Part shown: positions 1 to 42,914 of the stretch, piece by piece
Layout of the letters: each line of letters opens with the position of its first letter
Numbering within the stretch: position 1 is the stretch's first letter
DNA from: a virus
Taxonomy: Duplodnaviria > Caudoviricetes
Virus record (IMG/VR): IMGVR_UViG_3300033475_000064
Span: 1 to 42,914 of that record
Length of the DNA: 42,914 nt
Direction: 5' to 3' (one strand)
Position numbers and translations under genes: made by a program
Notes under the pieces: generated by a model
Told to the model about the DNA's origin: nothing
Databases searched by the model: none
The model's input: the letters and a program-made list of their open reading frames with translations, nothing else

Positions 1-127
1 CACGGCGGCCGCAATGGCCGCCGCTGAACCCCGCAACGGGAGAACGCATGTCCGAGGAGCAGCAGAACGAGGGCGCCGGTGACGGCTCGGAGAACGGCCA
101 GCAGGTCGGGGCCGAGCAGGAAGGCGG
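1..127. repeat. Terminal direct repeat (circular-assembly overlap), left copy
   Basis: 1-127 is identical to 42788-42914. 127 nt equals a common maximum assembler k-mer, and the junction joins the MuF-like gene to the scaffold gene in normal order. Confidence 0.95.
3..43 (+). promoter_or_regulatory. Twin pentaloop hairpins in scaffold leader; second overlaps the RBS
   Basis: CGGCGGCC-GCAAT-GGCCGCCG (3-23) and CCC-GCAAC-GGG (30-40); GGGAGA at 38-43 precedes ATG 48. Confidence 0.6.
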
Positions 128-764
128 CGGTCAGCAGGAGGGCCAGGAGCAGGGCGGTACCGAGCAACTCGGTGACGCCGGCAAGAAGGCCCTCGACGCG
201 ATGAAGGCCGAGCGCAAGGCCGCGCTGGCCGTCGAGAGGGCGACCGTTAACGCGCTAGCCGAGCTGCACGACAAGACCCCGGCCGAGATACGTGCCGCCA
301 TCAAGGGCGGCACGCTGGCCGAGGTGATCGGCAAGCCTGCGGTCGCGGCGGCCGACGGCCAGCAGCAGCCGGACGTCAACAAGCTTGTCGCGCAGGCCAA
401 GCGGGAAGCGTTGGCCGACGCGAACTTGCGCATCCTGCGCGCCGAGGTGCGTGCGGCGGCGGCCGGGAAGCTGGCGGACCCGGCCGACGCTCTCACGATG
501 CTCGACCTGACCAAGTTTGAGGTCGGCGACAACGGTGAGGTGGACCCCGGCGAGCTCGCCGATGCCATTGGCGAGCTGGTGTCCCGCAAGCCGTATCTCG
601 CGGCCAACGCCACCACGACCACCTTCGGCAAGTCCGATGGCGGCGTGCGCGGCGGCGGCAAGGCCCCGTCACTCGACGAGCAGATATCCACGGCCGAGAA
701 GGCCGGCGACTACAACACGGCGCGCCAGCTCAAGGTTGCCAAGCTCGCCGCCTCAACCAAGTAA
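48..764 (+). CDS. Capsid scaffolding protein
   Basis: Acidic Q/E/G-rich N-terminus, LGDAGKKALDAMKAER and GKLADPADAL...KPYLA motifs typical of actinophage scaffolds; directly upstream of capsid gene. Confidence 0.85.
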   Translation: MSEEQQNEGAGDGSENGQQVGAEQEGGGQQEGQEQGGTEQLGDAGKKALDAMKAERKAALAVERATVNALAELHDKTPAEIRAAIKGGTLAEVIGKPAVAAADGQQQPDVNKLVAQAKREALADANLRILRAEVRAAAAGKLADPADALTMLDLTKFEVGDNGEVDPGELADAIGELVSRKPYLAANATTTTFGKSDGGVRGGGKAPSLDEQISTAEKAGDYNTARQLKVAKLAASTK

Positions 765-5530: not shown

Positions 5531-8500
5531 ATGGCCGGCGGCAAGATCGACATTCTGGTTGAGCCGGATGCGAAGGGTTTCGGGTCCAAGTTGGACTCGA
5601 ACCTCAAGAGCCAGACCTCCTTGCTAGGCAGCATCGGCAAGGGCGTCGGCCTCGCTCTCGCTGCCGGCACCGGCGTGGCCGCCGTCGGCCTGTCCAAGGT
5701 CATCGAGCTCGGCAACCAGTACAGCGCGAATCTCAACGAGCTCCAGGCCGTGTCCGGGGCGACCGCCACGCAGATGGCGGCGGTGTCGAAGACGTCCATC
5801 GCCCTGGGCAACGACCTGTCGCTGCCCGGCACGTCGGCGGCCGACGCCGCGGCAGCGATGCTGGAGCTCACCAAGGGCGGCCTGTCCGTCGCGCAGTCGA
5901 TGACCGCCGCGAAGGGCACGCTCCAGCTGGCGGCGGCCGCGTCGGTCGATGCGGGCACGGCAGCCGAGCTCCAGTCCAAGGCGCTCAACGAGTTCGGCTT
6001 GTCCGCGGACCAGGCCGGGCATGTGGCCGACGTGCTAGCCAACACGGCCAATTCGGCGGCCGGCAGCATCACCGACATCGGGTTCGCGCTGAACTACGTC
6101 GGGCCTGTCGCGCGGGGCTTCAACATCTCGATCGACGACACCGCAGCCGCGATCGGTCTCCTCGCGAACAAGGGTATCCAGGGCGAGCAGGCCGGCACGT
6201 CGCTGCGCGGGGTGCTGGCGTCGCTGGCGTCGCCGTCCACGCAAGCCGCGGCCGCACTGAACACGCTGGGCATCAAGGCGTTCGACTCGAAGGGCAAGTT
6301 CGAGGGCCTCGACAAGCTGATCGGCCAGCTCGCCGCGGCGCAGGGCAAGCTGACGCAGGCCCAGTTCCAGTCCGCCGCGGCGACGGCCTTCGGGAACGAA
6401 GGCTTGACCACTGCTGTTGCGTTGGCTTCCTCGGGCAGCAAGGCGTTCGAGGACATGCAGACCGCCGTGTCCAAGCAGGGCGGCGCGGCCGATGTCGCCA
6501 GCGCCAAGATGAAGGGCCTCGGCGGCGCGATCGAGGGCTTCCAGTCGCAGGCCGAAACCCTCGCGATCGACGTCTACCAGAAGATCTCGCCCGGCCTGGA
6601 AACCCTGGTGCGGGCGGGAACCACGGCGCTCGGTCAGCTCGACACCCAGGTCACCAATGCCCTCGACGTGGCCGTCGCCACGGTGTCGACGTTCGGCCCG
6701 GGGATCGTCAAGGCCCTGGACGAGAAGCGCATCGAGGTGACGCAGGCTGCCGAAGACCTCCTGTCCCCGTTCGTCGACGGCGCCGAAAAGGCCGTCGCTC
6801 AGACGGTCGGCGTGGTGGCCAACCTGGCCGGTGACGTCTCCGATGTGGCCGAAAACGCTGTCGCCGGCCTCAAGCCAGTGGCGCAGGCCGGCGGCGAAGT
6901 CGTGGACAGCCTGTCCAAGTCCGGCGGGGTGCTCCAGACCGCCGCGACCGGGCTGGACGGGCTCGGTTCGGCGGCATCGGCTGCGAGCGGTCTGCTGAAG
7001 CCGGCCGGCGACCTGGTCGGTTTCGTGGTCGGCGCAGTGGCGTCGCTGCCTGGCCCGGTGCAATCGGCGGCCGTGGCGCTCGTCGGCCTGAAGATCGCCC
7101 AGAAGGCGTTGGGCGACACGCAGATCCCGGTCATCAGCCAGCTGCGCCAGTTCTCGGGTGAGATGCGCGTGCAGCAGGACCTGGGCCTGCACTACGGCCG
7201 GACCCTCGACACCATGGGCGCGGCTGCGGCGGCGTTCAACACCAGCACGATCCCAGCAGTGGCGGCTGCCCGCTCGTTCCGCGACCAGGTGGTCGCGATC
7301 CGGGACGGAGCGGCAGCAGGTGGCACGTCGGTGTCGACGATGTCGGCGACGATCAGCGCGCTGGCCGAGCGGTCCCCGCTCGTGGCCTCGATGCGGGATG
7401 CGTTCGAGTCGGCGTCGAAGGGCGCCGAGCGGTTCGGCGCCACGGCCGGGCTGGCTGCGGCGGCTGGTACCGGGTTGAAGGCGGCGGCGGGCGGTCTGGT
7501 GTCCGCCCTCGGCGGCCCGGTCGGGATCGCCATCACGGCGGTGACGATTGGTCTGTCGCTATTGGGTGAGGCCCAGGCTGATGCGGCGAAGCGTTCGCAG
7601 CAGCACACGGACGCCGTGGACAGCTTGGCGTCGGCGCTGCGGGATTCGAGCGGCGCGATCAACGAGAATGTGCGGGCGGTTGAGGCGCAGGCGATCCAGC
7701 AGAACGACTCGTTCAAGTCCGCAACGGATTTGGGTGTGTCGCTGAAGTCCTTGACCGACATCGCACTTGGCCAGGGTGACGCACTCGATGGGGTCCGGAA
7801 GCATCTCCAGGACGTCATCGCGGCGAACAGCTCGGGCGTCGAGAAGATGGACCGGTTCGGCAAGTCGACCGGCAACACGACAACGGTCCTGAACGACCAG
7901 GGGCAGAAGGCCAAGGACCTGCTCGACGCCCTCGGGCCACTGTCCACATCGTACGATGACGCGACGAAGAAGAACGAGGCGCTGGCGGACGCCACGAAGG
8001 ACGGCAGCACGCCGGCGATGAAGGATTTCGCTGCTGCGATGGGCAACATCGCGAAGAACGGCAGCGACGCCGACACGGTGCTGCACAACCTTCGGGAGGC
8101 GTTCGATGCGTTGACGGGGAAGCAGCTCGATGCCCAGCAGGCACAGGCGGACTTCAACGAGACGATCGCCAACGCCACCAAGAATTTCAAGGACGCGGCG
8201 GATGGGTCGAAGGGCTTTCACGATTCGCTGATCACCGATGGCGACGCGGTGAACATTGCCACTGACAACGGCCGGAAGCTGAACGATGCTCTAAACCAGT
8301 CCAAGGACGGGCTGGACAAGGTTGCGAAGGCGGCGTTCGACGCGGCCCGGGCGCAGGGCGACGACCTGCCGACGGCGACGCAGAAGGCGAAGGATGCCGC
8401 GCAGGCGGCTCGGGACCAGTTCGTGGACTTCGCCACGAATGCGCTGCATTTGACCGGGCAGGAAGCTGCGGACCTGGCCGACAAGTACGGCCTGATCCCC

Positions 8501-37478: not shown

Positions 37479-37831
37479 TGGCCCGGGCACCGCGCTCATG
37501 CAGCAAGTGCAAGCGCCCCATCCCGCCCGGCCAGGTCTGCCTCGCGTGCCGACGAGAGCAGGACCAGCAACGGGACGCCGTGCGGTACGCAGACGGCGCT
37601 GCCCTCGCAGCATGGCGACACGTCTCAGCAGCATGGCTACGTGAGCACCCGTGGTGTGTCGGCTACCGCCGACCCTGCCACCGACCAGCCACACAGGTCG
37701 ACCACATCGACGGATGCGGGCGCACCGGCAAGCGGGCGCTCGACCCCACCAACCTCCAGTCCCTGTGCCAGTCCTGCCATAGCCGCAAGACCGCCATCGA
37801 GGACGGTGGGTTCGGCAACCCGATGCGGTGA
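37478..37831 (+). CDS. HNH endonuclease (HK97 gp74-like packaging cofactor)
   Basis: WLREHPWC...ATQVDHI...NLQSLCQSCHSRKT; last gene before terS. Confidence 0.9.
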   Translation: MARAPRSCSKCKRPIPPGQVCLACRREQDQQRDAVRYADGAALAAWRHVSAAWLREHPWCVGYRRPCHRPATQVDHIDGCGRTGKRALDPTNLQSLCQSCHSRKTAIEDGGFGNPMR

Positions 37832-37912
37832 CGCAGCGTGACAGCGTGGCTGTCAATACCCCATCCGGGTGAACCTGAGATGATCATCTAAATCGGACAT
37901 AACCACCCCTAC

Positions 37913-37982
37913 CGGGGGTGCACCCCCGATCATGAAAAACCCCATCCCGCGTGTGAGGGCTCTCGCGGTGTGTACGGGTTCC
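37913..37982. other. Putative cos/packaging region
   Basis: Non-coding gap between HNH and terS; 16-bp palindrome CGGGGGTGCACCCCCG (37913-37928). Confidence 0.5.
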
Positions 37983-38009
37983 GAAACACGCCTTGAAACG
38001 CTCGCTGGC

Positions 38010-38048
38010 CGCCGCAATGGCGTCCGGACGTCCGGTCCGCAACGGGCC
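38010..38048 (+). promoter_or_regulatory. Twin pentaloop hairpins in terS leader
   Basis: CGCC-GCAAT-GGCG (38010-38022) and GGTCC-GCAAC-GGGCC (38034-38048), same loops and order as in the scaffold leader. Confidence 0.55.
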
Positions 38049-38067
38049 AGATTGGTAGCGGTGAGTC

Positions 38068-38649
38068 ATGCCTGGACCGCCCCCGAAGCACCCTTCCCAG
38101 CGTCGCCGGCGCAACGCCGCGCCGCAGTTGACGCAGCTGCCCGCCGAGGGCCGGCAGGGCGACGTGCCCGAGTGGCCGCTCGGCCCCGACATCGAGACCC
38201 ACGCGCAGCTGCAGGTGGCGCGCGACAAGGTCGAGGACCTGCAGTACCAGTACGACGAGGGCAAGCCGGTCGGCGGCCGGCTGACCAAGGCGCAGGAGCG
38301 CGTCGCGGTGCTGCAGCACATCGTCGAGATCCAGGCCGAGGCCGAGCTGCAGCTGTGGGCGAAGTTGTGGGCAACGCCGATGGCTGCGGCGTGGGAGCGG
38401 CTGCGGTTCGTCGACGAGGTCGCGTTGTACGTCCGGCATCAGGTGCTGGCAGCCAACGGCAACATGAAGGCGGCTGTGGAGGCGCGGCAGCGCGGTGACC
38501 GGCTGGGCCTGTCGAATCTGGCGCTGCTGCGGCTGCGCTGGGAGATCTCGGCCGATGAGGTCGGCGAGCGGCGCGCCGAAGCTGCGGCCGAGCCGGCGGC
38601 GAAGGCGCCGCGGACCCGGTTCAAGGTCGTCGACGCCTCGGCGGGCTGA
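38068..38649 (+). CDS. terS: Terminase small subunit
   Basis: GPPPK...RRRRN, LWATPMAAAW, EARQ..DRLGLS....LRLRWEI; directly before terL. Confidence 0.85.
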   Translation: MPGPPPKHPSQRRRRNAAPQLTQLPAEGRQGDVPEWPLGPDIETHAQLQVARDKVEDLQYQYDEGKPVGGRLTKAQERVAVLQHIVEIQAEAELQLWAKLWATPMAAAWERLRFVDEVALYVRHQVLAANGNMKAAVEARQRGDRLGLSNLALLRLRWEISADEVGERRAEAAAEPAAKAPRTRFKVVDASAG

Positions 38650-38650
38650 G

Positions 38651-40216
38651 ATGCCGTGGCGGGGCCCGGACTACGCGGGCGAGTTCCCGTCGTTGGGCTG
38701 GGCCATTGCGGACTGGATCGAGTACTTCTGCGTCATCTCGGACGGCGACCACATCGGCGAGCCGTTCAAGCTCACGCAGGAGATGGTGACCTTCTTGGTG
38801 CACCACTACCGGCTCAAGCCGACGGCTAACGAGCGATCGCCGCGTACCGCGTGGGTCAATCGGCGGTCGCAGCTCGTGCGGCCGCAGAAGTGGGGCAAGG
38901 GCCCGTTCTCGGCGGCGATCACGTGCGCCGAGGCGACCGGGCCGGTGGTGTTTGCCGGCTGGGACGCCGCCGGCGAGCCGGTGGGCCGCGAGTGGCCAAC
39001 GCCGCACATCCAGATCACCGCGGTGAGCGAGGACCAGACCGACAACGTGTGGCGCGTGCTCCAGCCGATGATCGAGCTTGGCCCGCTGGCCGACGACATC
39101 CCGGACACCGGCCTGGACCGGATCAACCTGCCGTCGGGTGGAGTGATCGAGCCGGTCACCGCGTCGGCGCAGTCCCGCCTCGGCCAGCGCATCACGTTCG
39201 TGGTGCAGGACGAGACGCACTCGTGGAACGAGCGCAACCGCATGGTGCGCCTGGCCGACACGCAAAAGCGCAACCTGTCCGGCACCGGCGGCCGCCTGAT
39301 CGAGACGACGAACGCATACGACCCCAGCGAGAACTCGGTGGCGCAGCTGACCGCCGAGACGCCGCGGCCGGACGTCCACGTCGACCACGTGCTCGCACCG
39401 GCGAACCTGTCGATTCACAACAAGCGTGAGCGCCGCAAGGTGCTCAAGAAGGTCTACGGCGACTCGTGGTGGGTGGACCTGGACCGGATCGACGCCGAGA
39501 TCGAGGAGTTGGTGCTCCGGGATCCGGCGCAGGCGGAGCGGTTCTACCTGAACCGGATCGTCACCGGCGAGCGGCAGTGGATCGCGCCTGAAGTGTGGTT
39601 GCCACTAGCGCAGCCCGGCCAGCTGGCGGACGGCGAGGAGATCGCGCTCGGCTTCGACGGCTCGATCAACGACGACTGGTCGGCGCTGGTGGCCTCGCGG
39701 ATCTCGGACGGCTGGATCACGCCGCTCGAGGTGTGGCGGCCACCGCCCGGCGCGGCGCCGGGCACGTGGCAGGTCGATACCCGTGGTGTGCGTGCGGCTG
39801 TGCGGGACGCGTTCTCGCGGTACCGGGTGGCGTTGCTGTACGCGGACCCGCACGAGTACCGCTCGGAGATCGGTGACTGGGCCGAGGAACACGGCGAGGG
39901 CGACCTGGCGCGGGTGCGGGAGTTCGACACCCACTCGGCCGGCAAGATCGGGCCGGCCGTGGACCAGTTCAAGGCCGACGCGATGACCGGCCGGTTGCCG
40001 CACGACGGTGACGAGTTGCTGAACCTGTGCGTGGCCAACGCCCGAACGGCCAAAAGAGGCAGGTACACGGTGATCGAGAAGGAAGCGCCGAGGTCGCCGA
40101 AGAAGATCGACGTGGCGATGTCGGCTGTCATCGCCTATCAGGCCCGCAACGACGCGATCGAGCTCGGCTTGGCCGGGACGCAGGAGTACGGCGTGTACTC
40201 GTCCAGCAACTGGTGA
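38651..40216 (+). CDS. terL: Terminase large subunit
   Basis: RPQKWGKGP (Walker A-like), AVSEDQT, FVVQDETH (Walker B), ALGFDGS..DD.SAL and KKID nuclease motifs. Confidence 0.95.
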   Translation: MPWRGPDYAGEFPSLGWAIADWIEYFCVISDGDHIGEPFKLTQEMVTFLVHHYRLKPTANERSPRTAWVNRRSQLVRPQKWGKGPFSAAITCAEATGPVVFAGWDAAGEPVGREWPTPHIQITAVSEDQTDNVWRVLQPMIELGPLADDIPDTGLDRINLPSGGVIEPVTASAQSRLGQRITFVVQDETHSWNERNRMVRLADTQKRNLSGTGGRLIETTNAYDPSENSVAQLTAETPRPDVHVDHVLAPANLSIHNKRERRKVLKKVYGDSWWVDLDRIDAEIEELVLRDPAQAERFYLNRIVTGERQWIAPEVWLPLAQPGQLADGEEIALGFDGSINDDWSALVASRISDGWITPLEVWRPPPGAAPGTWQVDTRGVRAAVRDAFSRYRVALLYADPHEYRSEIGDWAEEHGEGDLARVREFDTHSAGKIGPAVDQFKADAMTGRLPHDGDELLNLCVANARTAKRGRYTVIEKEAPRSPKKIDVAMSAVIAYQARNDAIELGLAGTQEYGVYSSSNW

Positions 40217-41756: not shown

Positions 41757-42786
41757 CGCCGTCGTCGCGGCGCACTATGCGGAGCAGCAGCGGTTGGCCA
41801 GGGCCGTGCTCGCCACAGTCCTGCCGCGGTGGCCGTCCACGGTGGACAACCTGCCGCTGCGCTACGGCGGCCTGCTGCCATTGCTGTTGGCGTCGCTTAC
41901 CGCGGGCCAGTTGCTCGCCGCGACGTCGGCGGACGACTACACGGCCACGCTGCTCGGTGCCGGCGACCGGCCGCCGGCCGCGCCGGTGGATCCGGTGCTG
42001 TTGGCCGGGACGGCGTCGGACGGCCGGGAGCTGGTGTCGCTGCTGCTATCGCCGCTGATCGACATGCAGACGGCGGTCCGGGCCGGCCTGGCCGCTGCTG
42101 ATGCGCTGGAGCGGGGCCGGGAGAGCTTCACGCAGATCGTGGCCACGCAGGTAGCCGACGCGGGTCGTGTGGCGGTGGGCATGGCGACGGTGTCGCACGG
42201 CGCGGCCGGCTACATCCGCGTGCTGGTCCCGCCGTCGTGTGCGCGGTGCGCGGTGCTGGCCGGGAAGTTCTTCCGCTGGAACCGGGGCTTCCAGCGGCAT
42301 CCGCGGTGCGACTGCCGGCACCGCCCGGTCGGTTCGGCCGAGGCCGACATGGCCCCGGACCCGAAGACCTACTTCGACAGCTTGTCCCGCGAGCAGCAGG
42401 ACAAGGTGTTCACCGCGGCCGGCGCGCAGGCGATCCGGGACGGCGCGGACATCAGCCAGGTGGTGAACGCACGCCGCGGTATCAGCACGGCGAGCGTTGG
42501 CGGCCGGGACATCCTGCACACGACGGAAGGCGTCACGCGGCGCGGCTGGTACGCGGCCGTGCAGCAGGCCCTGGATCCTCTCGTCCGCTTCGACAAGACG
42601 CCGGCCAGCCGCGTCCAGCGGTCACGGCGGCCGCGGCTGATGCCCGAGCAGATCTACTCGCTTGGGCTGGGCCGGGAAGAGACCCAGCGCCTGCTGACGC
42701 GCAACGGTTACTTCCTCGATGCCTCAACGGATGTCGAGGGCCGGCACGCGCTGGAGCGCATCGCGCGTCAGCTGCTGGCGCAGTGA
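41743..42786 (+). CDS. MuF-like minor head protein (often annotated capsid maturation protease)
   Basis: SCARCAVLAG...FQRHPRCDC, AIRDGADISQVVNARRG, PRLMPEQIY; between portal and scaffold. Confidence 0.8.
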   Translation: MPAADAVVAAHYAEQQRLARAVLATVLPRWPSTVDNLPLRYGGLLPLLLASLTAGQLLAATSADDYTATLLGAGDRPPAAPVDPVLLAGTASDGRELVSLLLSPLIDMQTAVRAGLAAADALERGRESFTQIVATQVADAGRVAVGMATVSHGAAGYIRVLVPPSCARCAVLAGKFFRWNRGFQRHPRCDCRHRPVGSAEADMAPDPKTYFDSLSREQQDKVFTAAGAQAIRDGADISQVVNARRGISTASVGGRDILHTTEGVTRRGWYAAVQQALDPLVRFDKTPASRVQRSRRPRLMPEQIYSLGLGREETQRLLTRNGYFLDASTDVEGRHALERIARQLLAQ

Positions 42787-42787
42787 G

Positions 42788-42914
42788 CACGGCGGCCGCA
42801 ATGGCCGCCGCTGAACCCCGCAACGGGAGAACGCATGTCCGAGGAGCAGCAGAACGAGGGCGCCGGTGACGGCTCGGAGAACGGCCAGCAGGTCGGGGCC
42901 GAGCAGGAAGGCGG
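42788..42914. repeat. Terminal direct repeat, right copy
   Basis: Identical to 1-127. Confidence 0.95.

Follow-up and report, generated by a model that had tools for sequence, protein, structure and literature searches.

Twin hairpins with five-base loops mark the starts of the genes for the head scaffolding protein and the terminase small subunit (TerS, gene terS) in a temperate actinophage genome. Across its relatives, these hairpin pairs are conserved in sequence and in pairing and are widespread, and their loop class follows the scaffold, not TerS. Covariation between the loops and a scaffold helix makes it likely that the scaffold itself reads the hairpins and suggests that free scaffold probably binds them as RNA and so represses translation of both its own gene and terS.

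Hairpin pairs at the scaffold and terS starts

The window, that is, the whole 42,914-nt stretch of DNA analyzed, corresponds to the 42,787-bp circular genome of a temperate actinophage plus a terminal overlap of 127 nt. Its late block runs from an HNH gene across a 236-nt gap to terS, terL, an SPP1-type portal gene, VG15/MuF, the scaffold gene and the gene for a presumed 555-aa capsid protein (806-2473), which had no PHROG or Pfam match and, among 56 capsid candidates compared, clustered only with that of locus L326. A terL-frame ATG (38651) lies just 3′ of terS. The original prediction had named the scaffold and terS genes, and profile matches bear out both identities (Table 1); the window scaffold also matches PF06810 weakly, below the cut-off. 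Hosts of cultured relatives comprise Streptomyces, Brevibacterium, Arthrobacter, Gordonia and Mycobacterium. phrog_226 and several RefSeq records call these small terminases ‘minor tail protein’ (L455:2665-3132, L210:90-557, L448:56-607 and window 38068-38649); L5 gp5 and the window protein both match PF25673 (Terminase_7). For Kromp terS (L444:134-754), the annotated start is at 200; translation from an in-frame ATG at 134, which is preceded by the twin hairpins and an SD-like run, gives the usual N terminus of the TerS family.

Upstream of terS, the junction CGCGTGTGA/GGGCTCTC (37948-37964) looks like the ends of the Kromp, Dubu and phiSASD1 records, with which it shares the form CGC(N6)/GGGCTCT, and the AGM1 record contains an annotated 9-nt cos-site. 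From this likeness we predict a cos site whose overhang would lie 112 nt upstream of the terS ATG and whose left genome end would begin at 37957, with the terS twin 53-92 nt inside that end. A promoter scan, which says little about actinophage late promoters, found nothing.

Table 1. Features of the window that bear on the proposed control of scaffold and terS
Feature	Position	Strand	Basis
Scaffold-leader hairpin 1, CGGCGGCC-GCAAT-GGCCGCCG, 8-bp stem, loop 11-15	3..23	+	closing-pair probability 1.00
Scaffold-leader hairpin 2, CCC-GCAAC-GGG, loop 33-37	30..40	+	closing-pair probability 0.81-0.86
Head scaffolding protein, 238 aa, proposed hairpin reader	48..764	+	phrog_4708, E=1e-29
Scaffold codons 41-57, LGDAGKKALDAMKAERK, helix cap and first turns; putative RNA-reading helix	168..218	+	covariation, AlphaFold
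Predicted cos 3′ overhang, 9 nt, CGCGTGTGA	37948..37956	+	similarity only
terS-leader hairpin 1, loop GCAAT (38014-38018), 4-bp core	38009..38023	+	sequence, covariation in relatives
terS-leader hairpin 2, loop GCAAC (38039-38043), 5 bp including U-G	38034..38048	+	sequence, folding
Terminase small subunit (TerS), 193 aa	38068..38649	+	PF25673, 28.7 bits (cut-off 27)
Single 4-bp GCAAC hairpin inside terS, coinciding with R-R-N-A codons	38107..38119	+	sequence

The four hairpins described in the original prediction are present, with loops GCAAT and then GCAAC in the same order at both leaders, spacings of 22 nt (scaffold) and 25 nt (terS) and a U-G pair in terS hairpin 2. Its claim that scaffold hairpin 2 sequesters the SD stands in part: the 3′ arm is the GGG of the SD GGGAGA (38-43, with the scaffold ATG at 48), and sequestration is partial because only these three of six SD bases are paired. 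Scaffold hairpin 1 is a perfect inverted repeat. Owing to the terminal overlap, positions 3-48 recur at 42790-42835, directly after the VG15/MuF stop codon (42784-42786), and scaffold hairpin 1 is thereby duplicated at 42790-42810. At terS, hairpin 2 ends about 19 nt before the ATG (38068), leaving the weak SD uncovered. Predicted stability of the terS hairpins varies with the folding window: over 38000-38075, an alternative fold is preferred (closing-pair probabilities 0.02 and 0.16), and in longer contexts the closing pairs reach 0.81/0.67 and 0.98/0.93. The GCAAC hairpin inside terS may be a by-product of the R-R-N-A protein motif. Searching the window against Rfam gave no match.

The genome-wide count of CCGCAAYGG proposed in the original prediction gave a divided answer. 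The bare count, five on the + strand and one on the − strand, was only marginal against a Markov expectation of about 1 (maximum 5 in 100), while two twin arrangements never arose in simulated sequences, 100 of which were drawn at each of three Markov orders. The one remaining + strand CCGCAAYGG of the window lies in a lone 11-bp GCAAC hairpin (with G-U) at 7710-7737 in the tape-measure gene.

Using scaffold or TerS as query, we collected 88 loci (760,717 bp). These contained 114 twin GCAAN hairpins, all 114 on the coding (+) strand, against 0-3 twins in five shuffles of the same loci. Scaffold starts accounted for 66 twins and terS for 32, with 16 further inside the scaffold coding sequence near its 3′ end; of the 81 loci with a scaffold gene, 60 had a scaffold-start twin by a strict 3-bp rule. 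In the whole genomes of the window phage, Kromp and AGM1, twins occur nowhere except at these terS and scaffold places, and Dubu and phiSASD1 have a twin at the scaffold gene and none at terS. Searches with distant scaffolds returned 3, 5 and 18 loci and a genome-contig search 5. A blind viral-contig scan for GCGCAANGC twins proved too unspecific, yielding 121 loci with mostly 2-3-bp stems in coding sequence. About four strong twins from it (L176, L184, L188 and L206) precede short ORF starts, three of these ORFs being terS-like by eye, and were excluded from the counts.

The covariation test proposed in the original prediction showed that the leaders covary in relatives. Pairing at terS hairpin 1 was retained in 89.6% of 192 cells versus 55.7% after shuffling, with 67 versus 24 double changes, in rows drawn from genomes already classed as hairpin-bearing, which somewhat favors pairing; slid-register controls gave 26-41% paired. 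Over their inner pairs, the other three hairpins covary similarly. G-U outnumbers A-C in the terS stems (34 versus 8), shows no bias in scaffold hairpin 1 (9 versus 6) and is reversed in the SD-constrained stem of scaffold hairpin 2 (1 versus 14). We used these per-hairpin counts instead of the pooled census (62 versus 43), which is blurred by SD-constrained stems.

Loop classes and the scaffold helix

To compare the two leaders, the sample was extended with distant terL-linked loci and cultured phages to 133 loci containing both. Four with terS leaders below 60 nt were dropped, and the remaining 129 formed 100 clusters at 80% scaffold identity. The leader analyses excluded loci L089-L209 as well as L364, which is identical to the window. 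Loops fell into the classes GCAA, GCGA, GNCA and GCAN, plus GRRA in one cluster. Of 64 clusters with a classed loop at each leader, 61 had the same class at the two (mean 25.7 and maximum 38 over 10,000 permutations), comprising 36 GCAA, 15 GCGA, 6 GCAN tetraloop, 3 GNCA and 1 GRRA; outside GCAA, 25 of 28 clusters matched. One or both leaders lacked a classed loop in 36 of 100 clusters. Since loop classes at sites about 4-5 kb apart change together, we infer a phage-specific reader.

Mapping loop class onto protein trees of the same 60 genomes required 8 changes for scaffold, 12 each for TerL and portal and 13 for TerS. Resamples with equal column numbers preserved this order (scaffold 8.5, portal 10.8, TerL 11.8, TerS 13.5; about 22 for shuffled labels). 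Nearest neighbors predicted the class correctly for 54 of 60 genomes with scaffold, 52 with TerL, 51 with portal and 47 with TerS. Scaffold columns 52/53 alone separated GCAA from GCGA with a balanced accuracy of 0.986, compared to best single columns of 0.878 in portal, 0.839 in TerL, 0.811 in MuF and 0.725 in TerS.

These columns lie in a predicted helix. In the AlphaFold model, an unstructured acidic tail is followed by a helix spanning residues 43-75 (pLDDT ~87-92 over residues 41-70), and the motif LGDAG would therefore cap a basic helix displaying K46, K47, K53, R56 and K57. Residues M52, K53 and E55 co-vary with the third loop base; in the window, position 53 is K and the third base A. 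Across 166 scaffold clusters, counting those with a classed loop, helix type and third base agreed throughout: xK with A in 72/72, ER with G in 31/31, W..H with C in 10/10 and W..N with A in 3/3. Held-out clusters followed suit (43/43 for xK-A, 16/16 for ER-G), the helix-type patterns having been written after viewing the 60 genomes and some held-out ones. Loops were missing from 9 xK/ER clusters and from 32 of 40 untyped scaffolds. A seeming exception, L388, turned out to be a pattern mis-hit in a protein that has MK. When the code was tested on an alignment without patterns, 122 of 132 classed rows agreed with it; the ten misfits were seven register slips of MK proteins, two W-type scaffolds and one apparent mis-called start. 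In the GCAA genomes L298, L326, L354 and L359, the helix was not alignable.

Only ~120-170 nt separate the helix codons from the scaffold leader, and the pairing of scaffold leader and helix could thus travel as one linked block. The match to the terS leader, about 4.8 kb away, is the part that linkage cannot explain, and here xK accompanied A in 33/33 cases and ER accompanied G in 16/17. Independent class switches are few. Independent pairs agreed in 6/6 cases on the TerL tree (p=0.031) and in 4/4 each on the portal and TerS trees (p=0.125), and a scaffold tree built without the helix contained four switches, with 3/3 supported pairs in agreement (p=0.25). With the helix removed, a single clade of G-loop scaffolds was rejected (AU p=0.0025). 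This rejection, together with the 6/6 pairs, indicates that ancestry alone does not explain the code.

Class-matched hairpins also accumulate inside the scaffold coding sequence. They outnumber mismatched ones 28:2 in GCAA genomes, and in GCGA genomes the ratio of GCAA to GCGA hairpins is 2:14 (Fisher 5e-8 across classes); the genes from terL to MuF had no comparable excess. Some coincide with YLAAQG and DGGARN codons that lie 110-185 nt ahead of the scaffold stop (L001:6646, L212:5465). Hairpins near the scaffold 3′ end could bear on capsid translation; none were found in the 3′ part of the window scaffold gene. Scaffolds with an EVDRIV-type helix (L253, L255, L256, L219 and L242) lack G..AN loops, and several such loci instead contain CTCC-(3-4 nt)-GGAG hairpins over the scaffold SD and sometimes the terS SD, possibly another operator class.

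Proposed repression and competing readings

The hairpins are positioned at start signals, in a manner that depends on gene and class. At the scaffold gene, the last loop of GCAA genomes lies at -12 to -21 in 31/36, over the SD, and the AUG is under the last hairpin in 9/15 GCGA and 4/6 GCAN genomes. At terS, the AUG is inside a hairpin in 5/6 GCAN and 2/13 GCGA genomes, and the GCAN arrangement implies repression. The GCAA-class terS loop, by contrast with the scaffold loop, sits outside the SD, at -20 to -30 in 35/36 genomes, the window included, and forcing the terS hairpins barely altered predicted accessibility of the start region (0.46 versus 0.48). The sign of control at terS is therefore not fixed for the window phage.

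We propose that unassembled scaffold likely binds the hairpin pairs as RNA operators through its N-terminal helix. The C-GNNAN-G loop would fold GNRA-like with its last base extruded, and the helix running from LGDAG would read the third loop base, with xK specifying A, ER G, RKHE C, and RQNE or RKNE A. Two helices, probably of a scaffold oligomer, would fill both hairpins. At the scaffold gene, binding would lock the SD or AUG stem and block ribosome loading; at terS, the bound protein would block loading from a position immediately 5′ of the SD, a repression that in the GCAA class would be steric and perhaps weaker. Uptake of scaffold into procapsids would titrate the repressor and lift repression, and scaffold freed during packaging would restore it. 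The SPP1 scaffold exits the capsid during packaging, as described in PMC6316719. Scaffold and terminase output would thus track the supply of empty proheads.

A similar arrangement with other loops is present in L5, where a CAGGT/CAGGA twin precedes gene 5 (TerS by PF25673) at L455:2628-2660 and scaffold gene 16 at L455:10752-10789, with terS 2.6 kb from the genome end. Only the first L5 hairpin counts as independent evidence because the second loop overlaps the SD itself. Noella, like L5, has such twins at both leaders, Forsytheast and CosmicSans have one or two CAGGT/CAGGA hairpins at these leaders, and Asten has them at the scaffold leader only. Scaffolds of the L5-type loci L455, L453, L456, L457 and L452 share an EAA-x-x-R helix.

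Several other readings were weighed. It is fairly unlikely that the scaffold reads the hairpins with an outcome other than repression at terS, either activation through an open fold or tethering of the late mRNA or genome end to the procapsid. Such outcomes would suit the GCAA-class terS hairpins, which stop 13-21 nt before the ATG in 35/36 genomes, the window alternative fold, which pairs the terS SD region if the hairpins are absent, and the closeness of the twin to the predicted left end. Activation by SD opening, however, found no consistent support in folding, as accessibility rose in 6/36 genomes and fell in one on forcing the hairpins, and the AUGs enclosed in GCAN and GCGA hairpins speak against it. 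Tethering, or any role as a packaging signal, is made less likely by the tighter distance of the terS twin to the ATG (sd 9 nt) than to the cos-proximal element (sd 31 nt) and by the L5 twin, of another loop type and far from the genome end. We consider it distinctly unlikely that another reader, such as MuF/VG15, the capsid protein or another phage or host factor, is responsible and that the scaffold residue co-varies by linkage or ancestry. MuF needs nearly as few class changes as the scaffold (9, in 59 genomes) and has a similar pairwise AUC (0.82 versus 0.81), leader and helix codons are adjacent, and switches are few. Against this stand the weaker best column of MuF, nearest-neighbor accuracies of only 42/59 for MuF and 39/56 for capsid (AUC 0.53), the scatter of GCAA genomes over many capsid clusters and the specific accumulation of cognate hairpins in scaffold mRNA; if one host factor were the reader, there would be little reason for loop classes to differ from phage to phage.

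A reading of the hairpins by TerS, which would control itself and the scaffold through an N-peptide-like, Arg-rich N terminus (RRRRN), is highly improbable. The window TerS does begin with the Arg-rich MPGPPPKHPSQRRRRN, and such starts are general in its family, but TerS fits worst on the trees and has the poorest best column, identical MPGPPPKHPS starts go with GCAA, GCGA, GNCA or no loop, and the site that is lost, as in Dubu and phiSASD1, is the terS one and not the scaffold one. The original prediction held that a phage protein reads the pairs, possibly as boxB-like elements for late antitermination. Strand-specific, covarying and class-matched, the pairs are most likely read as RNA by a phage protein, in keeping with the former part and with the idea of a control circuit; the antitermination part is not supported, and we give hardly any credence to an N-type protein acting here. 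GNRA-like pentaloops are a known protein-binding motif (PMC12550061), and the terS pair heads the late gene block. A boxB pentaloop must nonetheless end in A for the sheared G-A pair, and among 247 GCAAN hairpins the fifth base was C in 114, G in 77, T in 53 and A in just 3; moreover, the sites are pinned to start codons. No terminator-like site was present at window 37600-38700 in a scan that leaves aside Rho-dependent sites, and U-tracts were found at 0/60 terS start regions. No N or ANTAR Pfam family matched among 124 phage ORFs, a search that a divergent N would escape, nor did an N-type antiterminator match among 22 ORFs. Barely credible, finally, is a role at the DNA level, in which a packaging or transcription protein would bind the sites as palindromes or cruciforms. 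The sites are near the predicted cos and scaffold hairpin 1 is a perfect inverted repeat, but the arms vary freely around a fixed spacer, the reverse of the usual double-stranded DNA operator with fixed arms and free spacer, and both the excess of G-U over A-C at terS and the restriction of twins to the coding strand point to RNA.

Known systems and implications

Repression by free scaffold would have a precedent in P22, in which the repressor is free, not assembled, scaffold. Wyckoff and Casjens reportedly described translational autoregulation of the P22 scaffolding protein gp8 in 1985. The N terminus of the P22 scaffold has been implicated in this autoregulation (10.1101/2022.12.13.520362). 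As in P22, an N-terminal part of the scaffold would be tied to its own translation here, where residues 52, 53 and 55 correlate with loop class, and a cis element was found at the scaffold's own translation start. What sets the present system apart from gp8 is a defined twin-pentaloop operator, terS as an additional proposed target and what looks like a code that links residues to bases in many phages. A PDB search with a profile of 46 scaffolds gave no match better than E=0.44.

Structured leaders are also described directly 5′ of genes of the same broad scaffold family (PF06810/PF14265), namely GP20-a (RF02991), GP20-b (RF03003) and further candidate RNAs upstream of GP20/DUF4355 genes (Fremin 2023, PMC10690425). 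In the passages of PMC10690425 that treat GP20, the gene has no known function, and neither a reader nor a shared terS site is mentioned. Neither RF02991 nor RF03003 matched in 14 related loci; a DUF4355-linked candidate (for example, DNAVirus_416 or 516) may be this scaffold-leader motif. The ANTAR consensus resembles the core GCAANG. ANTAR RNA (EutV) comprises two hexaloops with A1 and G4 on 3-bp stems (PMC8934654), and is likewise a tandem of small leader hairpins, read by a dimeric helical protein. Here, in contrast, the loops are pentaloops, and the phage ORFs scanned contain no ANTAR domain. An ANTAR-target identity was rejected, as hexaloops with A1 and G4 are possible at only 13/133 cores and the pentaloop stems covary. 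With boxB, the hairpins share a short stem, a GNRA-like five-base loop and presumably a basic helix as reader. In the P22 boxB loop GACAA, one internal base loops out and the last is A (PMC12550061), whereas here the last base is free and the sites are paired and tied to start codons. SAS, a fixed 13-mer, and ESAS, with conserved 17-bp arms and a variable spacer, in Cluster K mycobacteriophages (PMC3203893) are phage-specific elements at actinophage translation starts too, with the binder unknown there; they precede many genes, whereas the hairpins described here combine variable arms with a fixed loop and, in the whole genomes compared, form twins at terS and scaffold alone. The literature searched, which covers few subscription journals, contained no description of a shared terS/scaffold operator.

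How scaffold, capsid and terminase are balanced from one late transcript is poorly understood. Although both binding and repression by scaffold are inferred from sequence comparison, we lean towards the wider view that, in a large set of cos-type actinophages, the scaffold is a repressor that binds RNA sequence-specifically through a simple helix-to-loop code and couples terminase synthesis to prohead availability, with the same circuit, using other loops, in L5 and its relatives. New relative to the P22 precedent are a defined operator common to the terminase gene and a named proposed reader, with a predicted specificity switch in which MK goes with GCAA and ER with GCGA. Cultured phages with the system grow on harmless hosts and include Kromp (Streptomyces lividans), AGM1 (Brevibacterium) and L5 (Mycobacterium smegmatis). 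If true, this would mean that a protein family regarded as purely structural also binds RNA, may account for the leader RNAs of GP20/DUF4355 genes, would offer small orthogonal protein-RNA pairs and would link head assembly to DNA packaging.
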